A DNA stretch of 16,425 nt from a virus. The stretch is from UHGV virus genome UHGV-1570171. One strand, given 5' to 3'. The position numbers and the translations under genes were made by a program. Below the pieces are notes generated by a model that had not been told where the DNA came from, made no database searches, and saw nothing but the letters and a program-made list of their open reading frames with translations. This document shows, piece after piece, positions 1 through 8,421 of the stretch (positions within the stretch are counted from its first letter, which is position 1; each line of letters starts with the position of its first letter).

Positions 1-45
1 CCAGATATTGAATGGCCTACGCCTCCGGCAGTTCAGGCCAGATGA
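1..45 (+). CDS. 3' end (last 14 codons plus stop) of a second, convergent tail-fibre assembly gene (tfa-prime); 5' part lies left of the window
   Basis: Plus-strand frame 1 from position 1 reads PDIEWPTPPAVQAR then TGA at 43-45. The PD(I/V)xWP motif matches the C-terminus of the minus-strand Tfa (APDVIWPELPEA) and of Tfa-family chaperones generally. The tail-to-tail arrangement matches Mu U/U-prime and e14 tfaP/tfaE. Only 14 codons are visible. Confidence 0.4.
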   Translation, partial: PDIEWPTPPAVQAR

Positions 46-619
46 CATCCGGCGCGGTGCTGGTATCTGTTGCCGTCACCGCGTCAATGTAATCCAGCAC
101 AGCGTTAAGTCTGGTTGTTTCTGCCTGCGTCAGTTTACGTCCGGCCTGCAATTTCAGTTGAATCAGACTGATGGAAGCCATTGCTGCATCAATCAGTGAC
201 TGGCGCTGTGCTTCTGCCGCTTCTACTGCGGCACCGTGTTGTGCCTCAGTATCTGTCACCCATTTTTCACCATCCCATTTATCGTATGGCGTTAACGGGG
301 CGATAGTGGTTGTATTTTCGGGATAGTCGCCTAGTGCTGTGATTTCTTTGGCATCTCCCGTTTCGGTGTTATAGACGATTTCACCGCGATGGTCTGACAC
401 ATATTCCCATGATTTTAAATCCACAGAACGGCAAATTGTATAACCAGCCTTAGATGTACCAGGAGCGTCTAAACAGGAATATGCTGGAATACCGACACCC
501 ACTGCAAGATATTCAGTTGATGCAGAAATATATTCCCGCGTCTCACCATCATAGTTATAGACGGTAATATTCCCCGCCTTCGTGGTAATAAGCTCGCTAT
601 TTAATACGGCGTTATCCAT
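17..619 (-). CDS. tail-fibre assembly protein (Tfa/gpU-like chaperone)
   Basis: 200-aa ORF directly downstream of the fibre gene. ATG at 617-619 overlaps the fibre TAA stop (TAATG). C-terminus ...TSTAPDVIWPELPEA is typical of tail-fibre assembly chaperones. Confidence 0.8.
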   Translation of the reverse strand: MDNAVLNSELITTKAGNITVYNYDGETREYISASTEYLAVGVGIPAYSCLDAPGTSKAGYTICRSVDLKSWEYVSDHRGEIVYNTETGDAKEITALGDYPENTTTIAPLTPYDKWDGEKWVTDTEAQHGAAVEAAEAQRQSLIDAAMASISLIQLKLQAGRKLTQAETTRLNAVLDYIDAVTATDTSTAPDVIWPELPEA

Positions 620-1389
620 TATGCAGCCCTCACGATATAGTTAAATGCAATATTTCGTGGACGGGTTTCACTCCCGCCAGTATTACCGATACTCCCTCGT
701 GAATGAAGTGTCGGTGATGGGATCAGACTCCCTCCTGTATTTGTGGCATCAAGTCCCCGTCCTTGTGTGTATGTTTTTTTGAAAATCGTAGCCAGTTCCC
801 ATTCATCTTTTGTGTCGTAACCATCATTGGCAACAACAATATGGCGGTGTTTTTCCAGCATCCCTGTCTGAATGCTCAATAAAACACGTCCTGCATCAAT
901 ACCGCGCCCGTCATCCCAGCCACGAATAAACTCACCACGTAAATCAGGCAATTTATTTGTCGGATAAGCCTTTGCCAGTTCCGGGTATTCTTCAGCAGAA
1001 AAAGCCGCACCGTTGCATTTCAGCCAGCCTGTTGGCGGTGTGGCTGAAGGCCATGGAACAGGCACACCAACAGGTAATGCAGAGCCTTCTCCCAAACCAA
1101 GGTTTTCGAGAGCCGTTTTCACCGTGCCATCCGATTTGATATCGCCAAACGGATTCTTGCGGCTTAACAGCAGCGCACGAAGCGCGGTAAGCAGCTGGTC
1201 ATGCCGCCCCTTCTCCAGGCTGGCACCGGATGCCTCCACCACGCTGCAGAGTTCTTCCTGCAACATGTCAAAGTAGTCATCATCCAGATCGGTGGCAGGT
1301 GTGCCGGTCTGGGGGTTACCACGGGTAAAACCGTTCTTACCCGCGCCGAACTTATCCTTCTGCGCGGTTTTCGTGTCTATACGATGCAT
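619..1389 (-). CDS. tail fibre protein with C-terminal phage tail-collar domain; N-terminal part is the likely constant region
   Basis: 256-aa ORF with ATG at 1387-1389 and GGAG 8 nt upstream. Collar-domain motifs [24 protein letters not shown] and [19 protein letters not shown] are present. Sits between the Mu gp48-like gene and tfa, as in Mu S-U and e14 stfP-tfaP. Confidence 0.8.
1087..1112. other. putative serine DNA-invertase crossover site (hix/gix/pix/cix family) inside the tail-fibre gene
   Basis: The 26-mer ttctcccaaaccaaggttttcgagag is an imperfect palindrome (half-sites TTCTCCCAAACC / CTCTCGAAAACC around central AA). It matches hixL TTCTTGAAAACCAAGGTTTTTGATAA at 20 of 26 positions as recalled from memory. 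In the fibre reading frame it encodes ALENLGLGE; the Mu gix site, again as recalled, encodes the comparable IQNLGLQE. Confidence 0.55.
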
Positions 1390-1392
1390 GAA

Positions 1393-2028
1393 TTACTCCG
1401 GATATTTAAAAATTACGTAGGTATGCGACGGGCAGAGTTTGTTAAGCACACACTCGACAACGGTGTCGCCCCAGATACGCAGTGCGGAATCACAGGGATC
1501 GCCACATGTCATCCAGGTGGTGTTGGTGGCGGCTGGCATGTTGCCCTGCCAGTAATACCGCCCTTCCCGACCGGCACAGGGGGCGTGTTTTGCCCCCTGC
1601 CAGTAATACCGCCATTCCGGCGCATTCACAGCGTCAGTGCAGGCTGATGAGCAGGTGAACGTGCTTTTGTCGTATCGCGTGATGGTAGCGTCTGGTCTGC
1701 CCAGGGCAGCAAGCTGTGCAAGGTAAAAATCCTCATTGATGCCGCCCGCCAGGTTAACCTTCGCATCCAGTCGTTGCTGACGCTGGCGAAGGGTCTGTGT
1801 CCCTGCGGGAATACATTCATCCGGCAGGCCGCACAGACGCTCCCAGCGGTTTATCAGTTCGGTGGTGGTGCGCGGATCCAGCTCCCGCATCAGGGCATCC
1901 GCACGCTGATGAACGCGGGTTAATGACGGTGCCGCACCGGCAATCGCCGGATCGCTGGCTGACCACGCCGGACCGGGGGGCAACAGTGCCGACAACAGAC
2001 GGATGTAATCATCGTTTGTCACGTCCAT
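1393..2028 (-). CDS. Mu gp48 / E. coli YmfQ-like tail protein (DUF2313 family)
   Basis: 211-aa ORF whose stop overlaps the fibre RBS region. Cys-rich C-terminal half. Position between the baseplate J-like gene and the fibre gene is as in Mu and e14 (ymfQ). Family assignment is by recollection and synteny. Confidence 0.7.
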
Positions 2029-3077
2029 GAAATCGTCCCCAGAACCGCCAGTTCATTTTTTGCAATGGAGATATTGTCTGCCGGTGCAAGCAACTGATGG
2101 CTGTATTCCCCGTTCGCACCGGAAATCGCCTCACTGATACGCGACACCTTCAGTTCTCCCTGCGGATAACCATCACGCAGCAGGAACGAACGCAACTCCG
2201 CGGTGATGGCAGCCCGTATTTCCGGTGTATCCGGCGTCACGCGGATATGAAAATCCACCGTATGTGCCACCGGCCTGAACACATACAAGTCAGAGCCTGC
2301 CACCGGGGCCAGTGGCCCGATATGTTGTCTTGCCGCCGTTTCCGTTGATTCTTCCGGAATGGGATTAATCAGGTCACTGCTGGCAATCATCACACCGACA
2401 GTTCCCGTTCCCATCCAGTGACGGTATGTCCATGCGCGGGTAATGCCGGGTACTTCTTTAGCCCAGACGACATAGTCCCCGTCAGCCCCGCCCTGCGGCG
2501 TCCAGTAATACCGCTCAATGACGCGGGCGCGCCACGTTTCCAGATCTTCAGTATCGAATCCGCCAGTCAGGGTATCTGCAACACCGGAAGACGGCAGACC
2601 ATTCACCGGCGTGACCAGGATTAATGCCGTACCGTCGTCAGCGTTACCGACCGCGCCTGTAGTTGAGCAAGTGATCGGCACACGCAGGACACCACCGGAG
2701 CTGGTTGCATCGGCAGTTGCCGTGTACTGAACCAGGTCATCGCGCTGAATCACGCTCCCGGCAGTCACCTTCAGGCCATCGCTGACACCTTCCCAGCGCA
2801 TATACCCGCTGGCAGCCGTGGCCCCCTTGCGCGGACACCGTTTCATCGCAGCATGTCGCGCCAGCCAGGACTCATCGCACAGGTCAGGCAGCATATTCAT
2901 TGCCAGATAATCGATGTACCCGTAGACCGTATGCAGCGCCGCCGCATACACCTTTGCCCGCACGTCTTCATCCATGCGCCGAAGCGTGTCGCTGACGTCC
3001 AGCCTGGCGAATAAATCGTTACGGAGCATACTGATATTTTCTGCCAGCGTCGGGCGCTGAAATTCACTGTCCGCCAT
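2019..3077 (-). CDS. baseplate J-like protein (Mu gp47 / P2 gpJ family)
   Basis: 352-aa ORF; 3' end overlaps the next gene by 10 nt and 5' end overlaps the gp46-like gene. Size and position match baseplate wedge protein J in Mu-type tails. Confidence 0.8.
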
Positions 3078-3492
3078 GCGTTATCGCACTCCACAGATCA
3101 TCAAAAGAAATCATTACCGGTCCGTCACGACGCCAGAGAGTGATACTGTTACCCAGTTCATTAATCCCGGTACGGCGGATATCCAGATCAATACGGGACA
3201 CCACGCCGTCATCAATCATCCATTGCAGGCATTCGCGGATATACCCCCTTACCGTCTGCACCAGCTGATTGGTCAGTTTGCTGCGCTGAAGCAGCCACAG
3301 TCGGGAGCCGTAACGGTCATTCTGTACCGCAGGCCAGGTATCCCCCCACCATCCCATCGGGACGTCGGCGTTGTCATCAGGCTCCGCCCGCCGCCAGGTA
3401 AACAGGGAAATCACCACGGCGCGGGTCAGCGGATCCAGCGGTGCGCTGGCGCAGGTGCGTTTACCGTTCACCGTCAGCCACAGTTCCATCAT
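3064..3492 (-). CDS. GP46-family baseplate protein (Mu gp46 / gpW-like)
   Basis: 142-aa ORF between the spike and baseplate J genes; start overlaps the upstream stop (translational coupling). Size and position match Mu gp46. Confidence 0.7.
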   Translation of the reverse strand: MMELWLTVNGKRTCASAPLDPLTRAVVISLFTWRRAEPDDNADVPMGWWGDTWPAVQNDRYGSRLWLLQRSKLTNQLVQTVRGYIRECLQWMIDDGVVSRIDLDIRRTGINELGNSITLWRRDGPVMISFDDLWSAITHGGQ

Positions 3493-4037
3493 GCCTCCAT
3501 CGCTTTATCAGGTTTGTCGGTGTTACTGCCCTGACCGTTCTCTCTGTGACGATGCCCGTTATAGGCAAGCCGCATCGCTGACATGGTGGTGCCGCCGGAG
3601 TCGCACAGGTCTTTCACCTGTCCGGTCACTTCCAGGTCCATTTCAAAACGTGCTTCAGGTGCATTGCGAAACGTGATCGTTTTACCTGCACCGTCCACCA
3701 CGATCCCCTCCCGGGTCAGCGTCACGGACTGCCCCTGATCGTCATAGACAGCCACCTCACCCGTCTGCAGCCCTTTCAGGCGGTAGCGCCGGTCCGACAC
3801 CGTAACAACCACCGCATGAGAACGGTCGCCATCCGGAAACAACACCACCGCTTCCGCACCGCTGTTTGCCCTTGCGGTAAAACCGTAGGGTTCAAGATGT
3901 TCAACCCCGGCTTTGGGTTCACCGGCAATCAGGGACACATCCACGGTCTGGCATTTCGTGGCGGCACTGATGCTTTTCACCACTGCCCGCCCAATCAGGC
4001 CGAGAAGTTGTCGCTGCATGGCTTCAATCGTCCTCAT
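3489..4037 (-). CDS. baseplate assembly protein V / central spike (Mu gp45-like)
   Basis: 182-aa ORF. Size and position after the gpD-like hub gene match gpV spike proteins. Confidence 0.75.
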   Translation of the reverse strand: MRTIEAMQRQLLGLIGRAVVKSISAATKCQTVDVSLIAGEPKAGVEHLEPYGFTARANSGAEAVVLFPDGDRSHAVVVTVSDRRYRLKGLQTGEVAVYDDQGQSVTLTREGIVVDGAGKTITFRNAPEARFEMDLEVTGQVKDLCDSGGTTMSAMRLAYNGHRHRENGQGSNTDKPDKAMEA

Positions 4038-5116
4038 CAGAACGGGTCCTCCTGTACTCTGGCTTTTTTCTTTTTCCGCGCGCCGGGATCTTCGGGTTCA
4101 GGCAGATAAGCATCAGGCGGGCCGACACGGATTTCCGTCAGGGTGCCGTTCTGGTCCTGAGTAAACGTGACTTCCGAGACAAGCAGTTCGGTATTGTCGA
4201 AACCACAGACCGGATCGAAGACAATCACCCGCTGGTTGGGCTGCCACAGCGTACCGTTACCCTGTCGCCAGCCCTGCACCACATAGGTGGTTTCATCCGT
4301 CCGCGCCGCCCGTTGTCGGGCTTCAAAGTCAGCACGCGCAATACAGCCTGCCCCCGTAGCCTGCCCTGTCTGCCTGATATACATCGGACGGTAACGGGCA
4401 ATAAATGCGTCCTCTGTGCGGGCCCGCAGCGCGGTGGTGGTGGCCTCACCGAAATCATCGTCGTTTCCGGCACGCTGCCCCGCCACCTGGTAAACTGAAA
4501 ACCGCTCCCGGATACTCTTCTCCGTATCACAGGAAAGGATGTTTTCCCCAAGTACCAGCGCGGTATGTGCCCGCGTTGAGCCAATACCGCCAATCACCAG
4601 CCTGCCGTGCGGATCGTCATAAGCCAGCGCCTGCTGCTGACCGAGTATTTTGTTGATTACCTCAATCACCGTTTCACCGTGATCAGGCTGAACATCAGGA
4701 ATAACACCCGACGGCGCACCGCTGTTCACCACCTCAATGCCGAAAGGCGCAGCAAGCGCCTGCGCAATCTGCACCAGCGAGCGTCCGTTAAACTGTGTCG
4801 GTTCGGCTGCACAGTCAATCAGGTCAGCGGTCAGACTGCGTCCGGCAATACCGGTGCTGACCGAACGGGCATCGTAACGAACGGGAGTCGCCTCCACCCA
4901 GCCGGTGATCACCAGCTCATCACCAATCAGCACTTCCACTTTTGAACCGTTTTTAATGCGCGGCTGAAGCGTGGTGATACCCTCATCTCCCGGCCACTGG
5001 CGAGTGATCTCCACACTGAAATCCCGCGCCAGCCGTTCAATACCGGCACCGATACGCACCGATGTCCAGCCATTCCACTCCCGGCCATTTACCCGTAGCG
5101 TGACATTGTCGTTCAT
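4037..5116 (-). CDS. tail/baseplate hub protein, late control D family (Mu gp44 / P2 gpD-like)
   Basis: 359-aa ORF immediately after the gp43-like gene. Acidic, Lys-rich C-terminus. Size and order match Mu gp44. Confidence 0.75.
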   Translation of the reverse strand: MNDNVTLRVNGREWNGWTSVRIGAGIERLARDFSVEITRQWPGDEGITTLQPRIKNGSKVEVLIGDELVITGWVEATPVRYDARSVSTGIAGRSLTADLIDCAAEPTQFNGRSLVQIAQALAAPFGIEVVNSGAPSGVIPDVQPDHGETVIEVINKILGQQQALAYDDPHGRLVIGGIGSTRAHTALVLGENILSCDTEKSIRERFSVYQVAGQRAGNDDDFGEATTTALRARTEDAFIARYRPMYIRQTGQATGAGCIARADFEARQRAARTDETTYVVQGWRQGNGTLWQPNQRVIVFDPVCGFDNTELLVSEVTFTQDQNGTLTEIRVGPPDAYLPEPEDPGARKKKKARVQEDPF

Positions 5117-6489
5117 TGCACTGGCACCTTCAGAGGGATCACCGGCACAAAGCCGGGATGCGTAATGGCATTACGCCGGATAATGTCCGCGTCACGCGCC
5201 GCGTTATCAAACCAGGTCGCCGCCAGCACCAGCGCGGGTAAAACCTCATCCGGCGTGCGCTGAATGATCCGTGCAGACTGTTCAAGGCGCGTGTTGATAT
5301 CCGCATTCAGATCTGCTTTCACCCGGCGCAGCGCCAGAAACAGCGCATCACTGGTTGTACGGGACAACTCCTTATCAATTGCCGTATTCAGTGTGTCGCG
5401 AATGTCGGTCAGTTCTTCCCACGTTGGCAGGTCAACCGTGTTTTTCACCGCCGGTGCATTGTTCAGTGCCGGATGCGTGACAGAAGGCCAGCCGGTGCTC
5501 TGCGCGGGTGTTGTTGACTGCCCCACTGTGGCATTCTGCATCACCGCGGAAGTTGTGGGCGCAGGCAATCGTGTGACGGCATACGCCGCTTCGCTGATTG
5601 CGGTCGTACGAAGGGTGCTGGCAACCACGTTACGCTGCTGCGTCGCCGTGGCGGTGGTTTTACTGTCCGTTTTCCAGACGCCGCGCGGTTGCAGATCGCT
5701 GCCGAGGCTGACACCGGAAAGCGTTTTGATCATGGTGACCAGGTCGCTGGCGTTACCATAAAGGCGTTTCCCGGTACGCCACATTTTCTGCACCTGCTCA
5801 ACGAAATTTTTGCCTGACGATGGCGGCGGCAGAAGTACCGAGATATCCCCCTGCAACAGCCTGGCGGCATCCGATACGGCAGAATCCACCACTTTCATCG
5901 CATCAGAAACATACCCAAGCATTGTGCTGGCATTACCGACGACGTCGTTCTGCACAAAATCTGCCACGCCATCGATACTGAAACCACTGAAGCTGTCACT
6001 GATGCAGTCATCCAGTGCAGAACAGGATGACATCAGCGTCTGCGCCGTCGCCGCACCTGAAGTGGGGTAAGAGAGTTCTCCCGCTTCGACAAACTTCAGG
6101 TCAAAGCGGACAATACGCCCTTCACTCTTCGATGTGCTGACCCGAACTTCCCCGTCAACACAGACTTTCAGCTCACCGTAAGTCGGATGGACAAGCGTGC
6201 CGGGACCGGGTTTATTCAGCGCGTCAATCAGGCGATCGCGCTGGTCAAAGCAGTCATCGCCCACCACATAAGCCGTGATAGACGGGCGGAAAGTGACTTT
6301 TCCCAGATCTTCGGTATAGGGCTTGTCGCGGTTCGGATATTCGTGTGTTTCCACACGGCGACCGGTTCCCGCACTTTCTTCTTCAACCTTAAACGGCACG
6401 CCGCGAAATGACGCGTCCTGAAGTCTGTCACGCCAGCCTGAAGACGACGAAAGTAATGAAGGTCGGGAGGGAAATGAGGATAAATCCAT
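5113..6489 (-). CDS. Mu gp43-like tail protein (DNA circularisation protein N-terminal domain family)
   Basis: 458-aa ORF with ATG at 6487-6489 and GAGGT 8 nt upstream. N-terminal WRDRLQDASFRGVPFKVEEESAGTGRRVETHEYPNRDKPYTEDLG resembles the Mu gpP N-domain. Follows the tape measure gene as in Mu. Confidence 0.8.
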   Translation of the reverse strand: MDLSSFPSRPSLLSSSSGWRDRLQDASFRGVPFKVEEESAGTGRRVETHEYPNRDKPYTEDLGKVTFRPSITAYVVGDDCFDQRDRLIDALNKPGPGTLVHPTYGELKVCVDGEVRVSTSKSEGRIVRFDLKFVEAGELSYPTSGAATAQTLMSSCSALDDCISDSFSGFSIDGVADFVQNDVVGNASTMLGYVSDAMKVVDSAVSDAARLLQGDISVLLPPPSSGKNFVEQVQKMWRTGKRLYGNASDLVTMIKTLSGVSLGSDLQPRGVWKTDSKTTATATQQRNVVASTLRTTAISEAAYAVTRLPAPTTSAVMQNATVGQSTTPAQSTGWPSVTHPALNNAPAVKNTVDLPTWEELTDIRDTLNTAIDKELSRTTSDALFLALRRVKADLNADINTRLEQSARIIQRTPDEVLPALVLAATWFDNAARDADIIRRNAITHPGFVPVIPLKVPVQ

Positions 6490-6513
6490 AGACTGACCTC
6501 AAAAAGGACTGCG

Positions 6514-8421
6514 TTATCGTGGAAAACGAAAAGGGGAATACCCCACATCGTGCGTGATTTTCATCAGGGGATCGGCTTTGCCCGGTACATCAATTATCTT
6601 CATACCTGGCGGAGCATTCTCGAACGTGACTTTCAGCTCGCTGTGCTGTGTCATGGAAGAAGATGGATTCAACAGCGGAACATTGGGTTTGTACTGACTC
6701 AGGCTGGCCTGATACTGCTCGTACTCTTTACGATCAAAAAAAGGCGTCCAGTCTGAAGCCAGAAACAGCCCTTTATTATCCAGCCAGTTAACCGTATCTT
6801 CAGGAACAACACTTTCCAGAGTATCTTTAACCGGCTCATACATCAGGGTTCCCCAAAAACCATATACCCCGGCCTTCCCGATAAAGCCGCGGCCTTTCCC
6901 CATCAATCCCGTTTCTGCCGATACCTTCCCCAGCGTACGCATCTCTCTGGTCACTGCGGTAATGGATTTGGTAACGTCAGCAACCCATTTGGTTGCCATA
7001 AACAGGGCAATCGCTTTCAGAACAGTTTCCCATCCCCCCATCACCTGCGCCGTTTCATCTACCACGTGCCAGACTTTTTTTATGACAGGACCTACGGTTT
7101 CCCAGTTATCAATAATGAGGTAAGCGCCACCAACCAGAAGAGCAATCAGCCCCTTAGCAGGCGTCATATTCATCACACCGCCGAGAACTTTCATGATTCT
7201 GGACAAAGAGCCTGCAGCGGCCCCCACTGTCAGTAAAGCCAGACCGATTTTAGCAATGGTCTTAACGAGCTCCGGGTTTTCACGGACAAACGTTCTCACT
7301 TCCTCAAGGAGCGGTTTTACCGCTTCAAGACCATCATTAACCTCAGGAAGAAACGTTTCCCCCAGAGTGGAAGAAATGGCATCAAGTTGATTTTGCAGAA
7401 GTAAAAGCTGGTTTTCCGTCGTCGCTGCCCTCGAAGCATATTCCTTCTGCATCGAACTGCCATACTGCTGGGAATCCGCAACCCGCCTGAAGTTGGTACG
7501 CAACAAATCAAGGTTAGTCAGCAGAGGTGCTATCGCGCCCAGAGACTCTTTCCCGAACAGGGCATTCAGCACAGCTGCCTGTTTTTCTTTAGGCACTTTA
7601 GCCATCGCATCCAGTACAGACAGCATGGTTCCCCGGGCATCTTTCTGCATATCAGCAGCTAATTTCTTCGGATTGATCCGCAGAAAACGTAATGCCTGTT
7701 TCTGCGATTTTGTCGCGGAATTTCCCGCGGTCAGGGAAAGCATGAAGTTCTTGATCCCTGTGGCGGCAATTTCTGACTCCACGCCCATCCCGGCAATGGT
7801 TGCCCCCATTGCCGCGATTTCGCCGGAAGCCACACCTGCAACACCACCTAAAGGACCAATACGCGTAACAATATCGGAGATTTTCTTCGCATTCGCCGGG
7901 CCGGTATTACCAAGGTAGTTGATTTTGTCAGCCAGCCCGGCCACTTCATCCTGCGTCATATTAAACGCAGTACGCCACTGGGCCATCATCTGCCCGGACT
8001 CTTCAGCCGTGGTATCAAAGGCCACGCCCATCTTCACCGCATCAGTGGCAAACTGCATCAGTTCATCACGTGCAATCCCGGCCTGACCGCCAGCCGCCAC
8101 AATTTCCGCGATCCCGTCTGCAGACATGGGAAGCTCAGTAGACAAAGCGCGTACCTGCTCCGTCATGGCCTTAAACGCATCCGGCGTATCCAGACCGTCC
8201 ACCACTTTGCGGACATCAGCCATCTTCGATTCAAGGGTGATGGCTGATTTTACAGGGAGTGCCAGTGCCCCCATTATTGCAGTACCCGCCCCGGCAGCGC
8301 CCAGAGCAAGGCTGGAGACTTCTTTCTGAAACCCCTTAAGCTGACGCTGCATACCTTTAAGCGGGCCGGACAGCCTGTCAACGGCGGTGATGATGGCTTT
8401 CAGCTGAAAATTATCAGCCAT
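6514..8421 (-). CDS. tail tape measure protein
   Basis: 635-aa ORF with ATG at 8419-8421. Ala/Gly-rich, predicted helical, with hydrophobic Gly-rich segments typical of tape measure proteins. Sits between the chaperone and baseplate genes. Confidence 0.9.
   Translation of the reverse strand: MADNFQLKAIITAVDRLSGPLKGMQRQLKGFQKEVSSLALGAAGAGTAIMGALALPVKSAITLESKMADVRKVVDGLDTPDAFKAMTEQVRALSTELPMSADGIAEIVAAGGQAGIARDELMQFATDAVKMGVAFDTTAEESGQMMAQWRTAFNMTQDEVAGLADKINYLGNTGPANAKKISDIVTRIGPLGGVAGVASGEIAAMGATIAGMGVESEIAATGIKNFMLSLTAGNSATKSQKQALRFLRINPKKLAADMQKDARGTMLSVLDAMAKVPKEKQAAVLNALFGKESLGAIAPLLTNLDLLRTNFRRVADSQQYGSSMQKEYASRAATTENQLLLLQNQLDAISSTLGETFLPEVNDGLEAVKPLLEEVRTFVRENPELVKTIAKIGLALLTVGAAAGSLSRIMKVLGGVMNMTPAKGLIALLVGGAYLIIDNWETVGPVIKKVWHVVDETAQVMGGWETVLKAIALFMATKWVADVTKSITAVTREMRTLGKVSAETGLMGKGRGFIGKAGVYGFWGTLMYEPVKDTLESVVPEDTVNWLDNKGLFLASDWTPFFDRKEYEQYQASLSQYKPNVPLLNPSSSMTQHSELKVTFENAPPGMKIIDVPGKADPLMKITHDVGYSPFRFPR

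Follow-up and report, generated by a model that had tools for sequence, protein, structure and literature searches.

The left edge of virus genome UHGV-1570171 very probably carries the 3' end of a silent tfa gene in an e14-type invertible tail-fibre segment

Described invertible segments and the plan of the locus

The C segment of P1 (cin) and the Min system of p15B belong to the same family of invertase-driven fibre-tip switches. In p15B, many cassettes are combined with several crossover sites; the DNA analyzed here has a single site. In the G segment of phage Mu (S-U / U'-S'-gin), the constant N-terminus of the fibre is encoded outside the segment, two cassettes with their own chaperone genes are arranged tail to tail, and a serine invertase gene is located adjacent to them. 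The P segment of the cryptic prophage e14 (stfP-tfaP / tfaE-stfE-pinE) was reportedly described by Plasterk and van de Putte in 1985 and by Mehta et al. in 2004.

We analyzed a stretch of 16,425 nucleotides of UHGV-1570171, one strand of which is numbered 5' to 3' and which we refer to as the window. A preliminary description had proposed that a short plus-strand frame at its left edge is the end of a second tfa gene, which converges with, and overlaps, a minus-strand tfa gene in the way of the Mu genes U and U'. The features relevant to this proposal are the following.

1..45, plus strand: very probable 3' end of tfa' (TfaP-type), comprising the last 14 codons (translation PDIEWPTPPAVQAR) and a TGA stop; the remainder of the gene is located to the left of position 1
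17..619, minus strand: tfa (TfaE-type), an ORF of 200 aa with a Caudo_TAP domain, in the expressed orientation
17..45, coding on both strands: stretch shared by the 3' ends of the convergent tfa genes, 29 nt including both stops
619..1389, minus strand: tail fibre gene, an ORF of 256 aa with a Collar domain
1087..1112: 26-nt crossover site of the Pin/Gin/Cin/Hin type, TTCTCCCAAACCAAGGTTTTCGAGAG, with the central AA at 1099-1100
1..1099: part of the invertible segment lying within the window, ~1.1 kb of ~1.9 kb
1393..2028, minus strand: ymfQ, a Mu gp48-like baseplate gene (Phage_Mu_Gp48, 82.1 bits), directly upstream of the fibre gene and outside the segment

Positions 1-45 are very probably the 3' end of a TfaP-type tfa' gene in silent orientation, which forms part of an e14-type 'P' invertible segment at the end of the late operon in an intact E. 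coli prophage, a myovirus of the SfV/e14 type. All substantial genes of the window are located on the minus strand, and Pfam analysis together with an annotated relative identified them as a complete late operon. Its order is portal, capsid, tail terminator, sheath, tube, tail assembly chaperone, tape measure and DNA-circularisation protein, then baseplate proteins similar to Mu gpP, gp45, gp46 and gp47, YmfQ, the 256-aa fibre (Collar) and Tfa. The plus-strand fragment 1-45 is the sole plausible coding sequence opposite to these genes.

The P segment of e14 has the same order as the one deduced here, i.e., ymfQ, constant part of the fibre gene, site, cassette, tfa, convergent tfa, cassette, site and pinE. 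In E. coli K-12, the tfaP (1208132..1208545, plus strand) and tfaE (1208517..1209119, minus strand) genes of e14 share the same 29-nt overlap. Moreover, the published repeat of the e14 P segment, 5'-CCTTCTCCCAAACCAA-3', is identical to the 16-nt repeat present at positions 1085-1100 of the window (PMC12529663). The orientation of the window is opposite to that of the K-12 reference, and its 256-aa fibre corresponds approximately to StfP2, the fusion obtained by inverting the K-12 segment in silico (75% identical). Compared at the DNA level, the window and K-12 e14 are mosaic: positions 1-169 are identical (1-151 = 100%), positions 1-669 as a whole are 89% identical, no DNA alignment is obtained for the central part of the fibre cassette (~670-867), and positions 868-1105 are 93% identical. 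The closest relatives of the window also differ from K-12 in that their alternative cassette (27% identical to K-12 StfE2) and the N-terminal half of their tfa' gene (147 versus 137 aa for the whole protein) are different alleles. Finally, whereas K-12 e14 is a decayed remnant of the same phage design, the prophage in the window has a complete late operon.

The comparison with Mu held in part. The tail-to-tail arrangement of the chaperone genes is shared, but instead of an overlap there is a gap of 28 nt between the end of U (33502) and the start of U' (33531). Because of this separation, e14 and not Mu is the closest model. Mu U is also only weakly similar to the window Tfa (27% over 94 aa, E 0.006), and Mu was rejected in favor of e14 on both counts. 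In addition, the G segment of Mu is ~3 kb, with cassettes far larger than those of the system studied here.

Phages SfV, SfI, SfII and SfIV of Shigella/E. coli, which have an HK97-like head and a Mu-like tail, are 97-98% identical to positions 1086-5200 of the window and have the same gene order; the late operon of the window follows their design. These phages share the constant part of the fibre, but the homology ends at position 1086, the outer edge of the crossover repeat, and farther left they have a different, fixed cassette with one tfa gene and no invertase. SfV has one fixed fibre cassette and one tfa gene, which are followed by gtr genes, and it lacks a second cassette and an invertase gene. 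The break in homology of the SfV-type phages at 1086 shows that different phage lineages are joined at the crossover site, which is thus a mosaic boundary as well. Phage SKA5 likewise shows 97-98% homology to the window from position 1086 rightward.

Two genes of the late operon differ in length between the window and its relatives. The ymfQ gene contains a 51-nt in-frame insertion at positions 1548-1598, such that YmfQ has 211 aa in the window versus 194 aa in every relative examined. The insertion consists of a direct duplication of 18 nt (GGCGGTATTACTGGCAGG) that flanks a 33-nt insert with an 8-bp G+C hairpin. Neither the 51-nt insertion nor a match to the 33-nt insert was present in a set of 5,426 complete E. 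coli genomes; the insert could be filler DNA, a product of slippage or an assembly artefact. The other gene encodes the DNA circularisation protein (5113-6489, minus strand). This protein has 458 aa in the window, in MB15 (the best whole-window match) and in locus L012, and 442 (or 433) aa in several close relatives, corresponding to a length polymorphism of ~48 nt.

The convergent tfa 3' ends

Plus-strand frame 1 of positions 1-45 ends in a stop after 14 codons, and its coordinates and translation were exactly as first described. A recount of the overlap with the minus-strand gene, which according to the ORF list ends in TAPDVIWPELPEA (TSTAPDVIWPELPEA) followed by a TAG stop, again gave 29 bp (17-45) when both stop codons are included. 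The preliminary description had also noted that the plus-strand frame mirrors the Tfa C-terminus PDVIWPELPEA, and this was borne out: the motif APDIEWPxPP of the fragment aligns with APDVIWPELP of the window Tfa. The identity of the minus-strand gene is clear, as Tfa (17..619) scores 113.6 bits (E 9.4e-33) against the Pfam family Caudo_TAP and is 87% identical to K-12 TfaE.

A frame of this length might be open by chance, antisense to the 3' region of tfa, with no second gene present. Only 14 codons are visible, and we estimate that about half of all random 14-codon stretches are free of stops. The sequences of related loci do not agree with such a reading. An exact pattern scan of contigs with the 151 nt of window positions 1-151 gave a sole match, which is the tfaP/tfaE junction in the e14 element of E. 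coli ECGI0523 (L003); this copy departs from the window after position 169. Furthermore, of 15 related loci, 14 have a full Caudo_TAP ORF as the extension of the frame, and the C-terminal motif is common to the fragment and the window Tfa. The similarity is not limited to this motif: when the full-length Tfa' of E. coli O157:H7 FRIK944 (L002; 147 aa) was compared with the window Tfa, the C-terminal 80 residues, including APD(I/V)xWPxxP, aligned with 35% identity (E 4e-12). The exact match of positions 1-151 to e14, the full Tfa ORFs in 14 of the 15 loci and the alignment of the C-terminal 80 residues are the reasons why, judged by its sequence, the fragment is taken as a real gene end and not a product of chance. 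On the same grounds the chance-frame reading, to which we assign a vanishingly small probability, can be considered refuted.

The 45 nt of the window are identical in 10 of the 15 related loci. Three loci (L001, L006 and L007) carry an A-to-G change at the equivalent of window position 19 (position 5019 of L001). On one strand, this change replaces Thr by Ala in Tfa'; on the other, it converts the TAG stop of tfa into CAG, which lengthens Tfa by 35 residues and leads PGAP to call the gene a pseudogene. A single substitution altering both tfa genes therefore shows that the 29-nt overlap is under a dual-coding constraint.

We also screened the region for expression signals. Beside the overlap, a single weak plus-strand hairpin was detected at positions 49-63; as 1.2 such hairpins are expected by chance, it was rejected as evidence of a terminator or of any other signal. 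A scan of positions 1-1500 did not reveal promoter-like sites, and Rfam and tRNA scans did not identify RNA genes in the window.

The left flank and the crossover site in related loci

The frame was extended leftward in the 15 related loci, and the left flank of the window itself is deduced from these relatives. In a megablast search of 5,426 complete E. coli genomes with the whole window as the query, the best matches are 97.8-98.0% identical, and an exact-protein look-up of the window Tfa gave eight contigs, none of which is identical to the window. The check proposed in the preliminary description, namely whether the plus-strand frame continues into a full Tfa-family gene, had a positive outcome in the relatives, because a complete Caudo_TAP gene of 137-147 aa was found in 14 of the 15 loci. 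The exception is L011, in which an IS is located at about window position 10. In L001, L002, L004 and all eight exact-Tfa contigs, the frame forms the 3' end of a Caudo_TAP gene that converges on tfa and overlaps it. The called length of its product is 146-147 aa, except for the IS-interrupted L011, where it is 142 aa.

The family assignment of this gene is well supported. Caudo_TAP corresponds to Pfam PF02413, for which the 14-aa fragment alone is too short to score. The 147-aa forms of Tfa' score 109-114 bits; for the ORFs of L002 and L004, whose last 45 nt are identical to those of the window, the scores are 109.4 and 114.4 bits, respectively (cutoff 22.1 bits). Residues 10-142 align with positions 3-130 of the 131-position profile, placing the fragment at the C-terminal end of the profile. 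K-12 TfaP, which has the same C-terminus as the fragment, scores 71 bits.

Farther to the left, the relatives have a common gene order. E. coli JNE132847 (L001) and O157:H7 FRIK944 (L002) are 96-97% identical to the window over positions 1-2100. In both, the leftward sequence contains the 147-aa tail fiber assembly gene, upstream of it a gene for a 136-aa "gp53-like domain-containing protein", and then pinE on the opposite strand. MB15 has the same gene order with a different cassette allele. In the loci that have the orientation of the window, tfa' is preceded by a Gp53-like_C cassette of 128-138 aa without the ~100-aa fibre N-terminus, and beyond the cassette there is a crossover site as well as, in seven out of eight, pinE. 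The cassette ends 1-20 nt before the start of tfa'. The silent fibre cassette beside pinE, left of the window equivalent, is located at the following positions.

L001, 4171-4581: silent fibre cassette
L002, 4171-4581: silent fibre cassette
L004, 5214-5600: silent fibre cassette

The expectation of a "start-less" alternative cassette was thus correct as far as the absence of the ~100-aa fibre N-terminus is concerned, but not in the strict sense, as a short in-frame leader starting with ATG (MPFARYFCISINVGLGE... or MPVSHNLCIFLNVGLGE...) is present, and PGAP annotates the cassette as a CDS of 128-136 aa.

The pinE gene of the relatives encodes a protein of 184 aa (Resolvase 172 bits, HTH_7 50 bits) that is 97% identical to K-12 PinE and 78% identical to Mu Gin. 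It adjoins the segment in five of the eight exact-Tfa contigs and in L001, L002, L004, L006 and L007. The invertase genes gin, cin and hin are known to contain a Fis-dependent recombinational enhancer in their 5' part. Pin is presumably the enzyme that inverts the segment.

Several relatives deviate from this organization. In two of the eight exact-Tfa contigs, a gene for a 629-aa GmrSD-type restriction protein is located at the usual place of pinE (L009, 6685-8574; L014, 2340-4229), and these copies therefore have no cis invertase. Other relatives contain different defence-type genes past pinE (LEM-3-like GIY-YIG and KAP NTPase genes; mcrA in K-12). In L011 (GCA_054888695.1), an IS-type transposase gene (5604-6858; 392 aa, rve + HTH_Tnp_1) is present between the convergent tfa genes, and the insertion truncates the end of tfa', resulting in a protein of 142 aa.

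The crossover site of the window is located within the fibre gene, where it spans codons 93-101 (ALENLGLGE). Two imperfectly symmetric half-sites flank the central AA. The site is present in a single copy in the window, where none is expected by chance, and a multi-inversion system was rejected on the basis that there is only one crossover site within the window. It divides the fibre into a constant N-terminal part, approximately residues 1-101 (window 1087-1389), and a variable receptor-binding cassette, residues ~102-256 (window 619-1086), which is located within the invertible segment.

The relatives contain the partner of this site. In L001, the sequence at 4203-4222, beside pinE, forms an inverted repeat with 6086-6105, which corresponds to window 1086-1105. 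In L001 and L002, the two inverted sites have arms of 20 nt that are 95% complementary, with TT and AA as the central dinucleotides, and they are 1,863 nt apart. Two convergent chaperone genes occupy the middle of the segment, as 17..619 (minus strand) and 1-45 (plus strand) in the window and as full pairs in the relatives. The proposal that the left edge has the tail-to-tail layout of an invertible fibre segment, and with it the assignment of the crossover site, is supported by the gene order of the relatives and of K-12 e14, by the e14 repeat and by the inverted partner beside pinE in the relatives. When L001 was inverted in silico at the central dinucleotides, the fibre frame remained open, and the result was a 220-aa fibre gene followed, after 20 nt, by tfa'. 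This alternative fibre consists of the constant residues 1-101 and the Gp53-like cassette, and exactly this 220-aa gene is annotated in strain NWU_1 (3478..4140).

By analogy with L001 and L002, the segment would continue for ~790 nt to the left of the window, a stretch holding the remainder of tfa', the other fibre cassette and the partner of the crossover site. The left flank of this genome probably has the same content as that of the relatives, and the uncertainty that remains is limited to this flank.

Inversion of the segment and its possible roles

The segment inverts in nature. The fibre junction of the in silico inverted form, used as a query of 700 nt, was matched contiguously by 73 complete E. 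coli genomes; for the native junction, which has the orientation of the window, the number is 348. Both orientations occur in O157:H7 strains and also among the eight exact-Tfa contigs. The most direct comparison is provided by the South African O155 isolates NWU_1 and NWU_3, which are identical over 7.7 kb except for an inversion of 1,863-1,893 nt without mismatches, the breakpoints of which are located inside the 15-nt core shared by the crossover sites. Phase variation of the e14 segment in culture has been published (PMC4272514).

These data fit the following mechanism. The 26-nt site (1087-1112) splits the fibre gene such that only the variable C-terminal cassette belongs to the segment, whereas the constant N-terminal part lies outside. 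An inverted copy of TTGGTTTGGGAGAAG, the partner of the crossover site, is predicted in the left flank within ~0.8 kb of the window, beside the serine invertase gene pinE. Through recombination of these sites by Pin, ~1.9 kb would then be inverted. After the flip, the constant part of the fibre gene would read into the alternative Gp53-like cassette and then tfa', and the present cassette and its tfa gene would become a silent, outward-facing pair. Since each cassette carries its own chaperone gene downstream, the 3' ends of the two tfa genes would face each other at the centre of the segment in either orientation. The switch would probably change the host range of the phage.

Another possibility is that the switch is dead in this genome, through loss of pinE or the second site or through disruption of the partner, and that the 45 nt are a relic. 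Such states can be found among the relatives, since L009 and L014 have the same cassettes with the GmrSD gene at the usual place of pinE, and L011 has the IS between its tfa genes. Nevertheless, pinE is present beside the segment in the relatives L001, L002, L004, L006 and L007 and at five of the eight places with the exact Tfa, and the 45 nt of the window are intact and identical to those of functional-looking copies. In addition, the e14 segment can be inverted in trans by further Pin-family invertases whose genes are located at other places of a genome (PMC12529663). We consider a frozen switch very unlikely.

The function of the switch may also be viewed differently. A 2025 paper reported that StfE2, the positional K-12 counterpart of the silent cassette that is made after inversion, is active (PMC12529663): inversion of the e14 P segment creates this protein, which has a gp53-like C-terminal domain, and it lowers the adsorption of T2. 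According to this alternative, the segment would have been domesticated by the host as a defence switch, in which the pinE-proximal ORF, composed of the ATG leader and Gp53-like_C, blocks the adsorption of other phages and the tfa genes are passengers. Relatives with the orientation of the window do have an equivalent ORF of 128-138 aa annotated beside pinE or in its place. However, the cassette of the relatives has only the low identity to K-12 StfE2 given above, and the segment forms the end of a late operon that is complete from portal to tfa and looks intact, a setting in which the classical role in host range is the straightforward reading. Domestication as a defence switch is in our opinion quite unlikely here, although defence and host-range roles are compatible and not mutually exclusive.

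A further, doubtful reading has two separate parts. The conserved tfa centre would act as a hinge for homologous recombination and, separately, the pinE-proximal Gp53-like ORF would be expressed in the orientation of the window as an adsorption blocker that protects the host. The hinge could comprise the C-terminal halves of both tfa genes, including the dual-coding 29-nt overlap. The reasons for proposing a hinge are that at least four N-terminal types of Tfa' with one common C-terminus are present among the 15 loci, that the identity between the window and K-12 e14 is mosaic, and that the homology to the SfV-type phages breaks at the crossover site. If it were correct, the arms of the switch, each consisting of a cassette and the N-terminal half of its tfa gene, would reassort independently between prophages.

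The preferred reading remains that of a silent-orientation tfa' end in a phage tail-fibre switch. The system as such is already known: it is a further example of the e14-type P invertible tail-fibre segment and does not introduce a new principle. For annotation, it means that the plus-strand fragment at the left edge should be treated as a gene end, that the fibre gene 619..1389 is one of two alternative forms, and that the CDSs annotated as "gp53-like domain-containing protein" beside pinE are cassette halves. For the biology of the prophage, it implies that the host-recognition tip would be phase-variable, and that the fibre and tfa genes may stand in either orientation in sister isolates.
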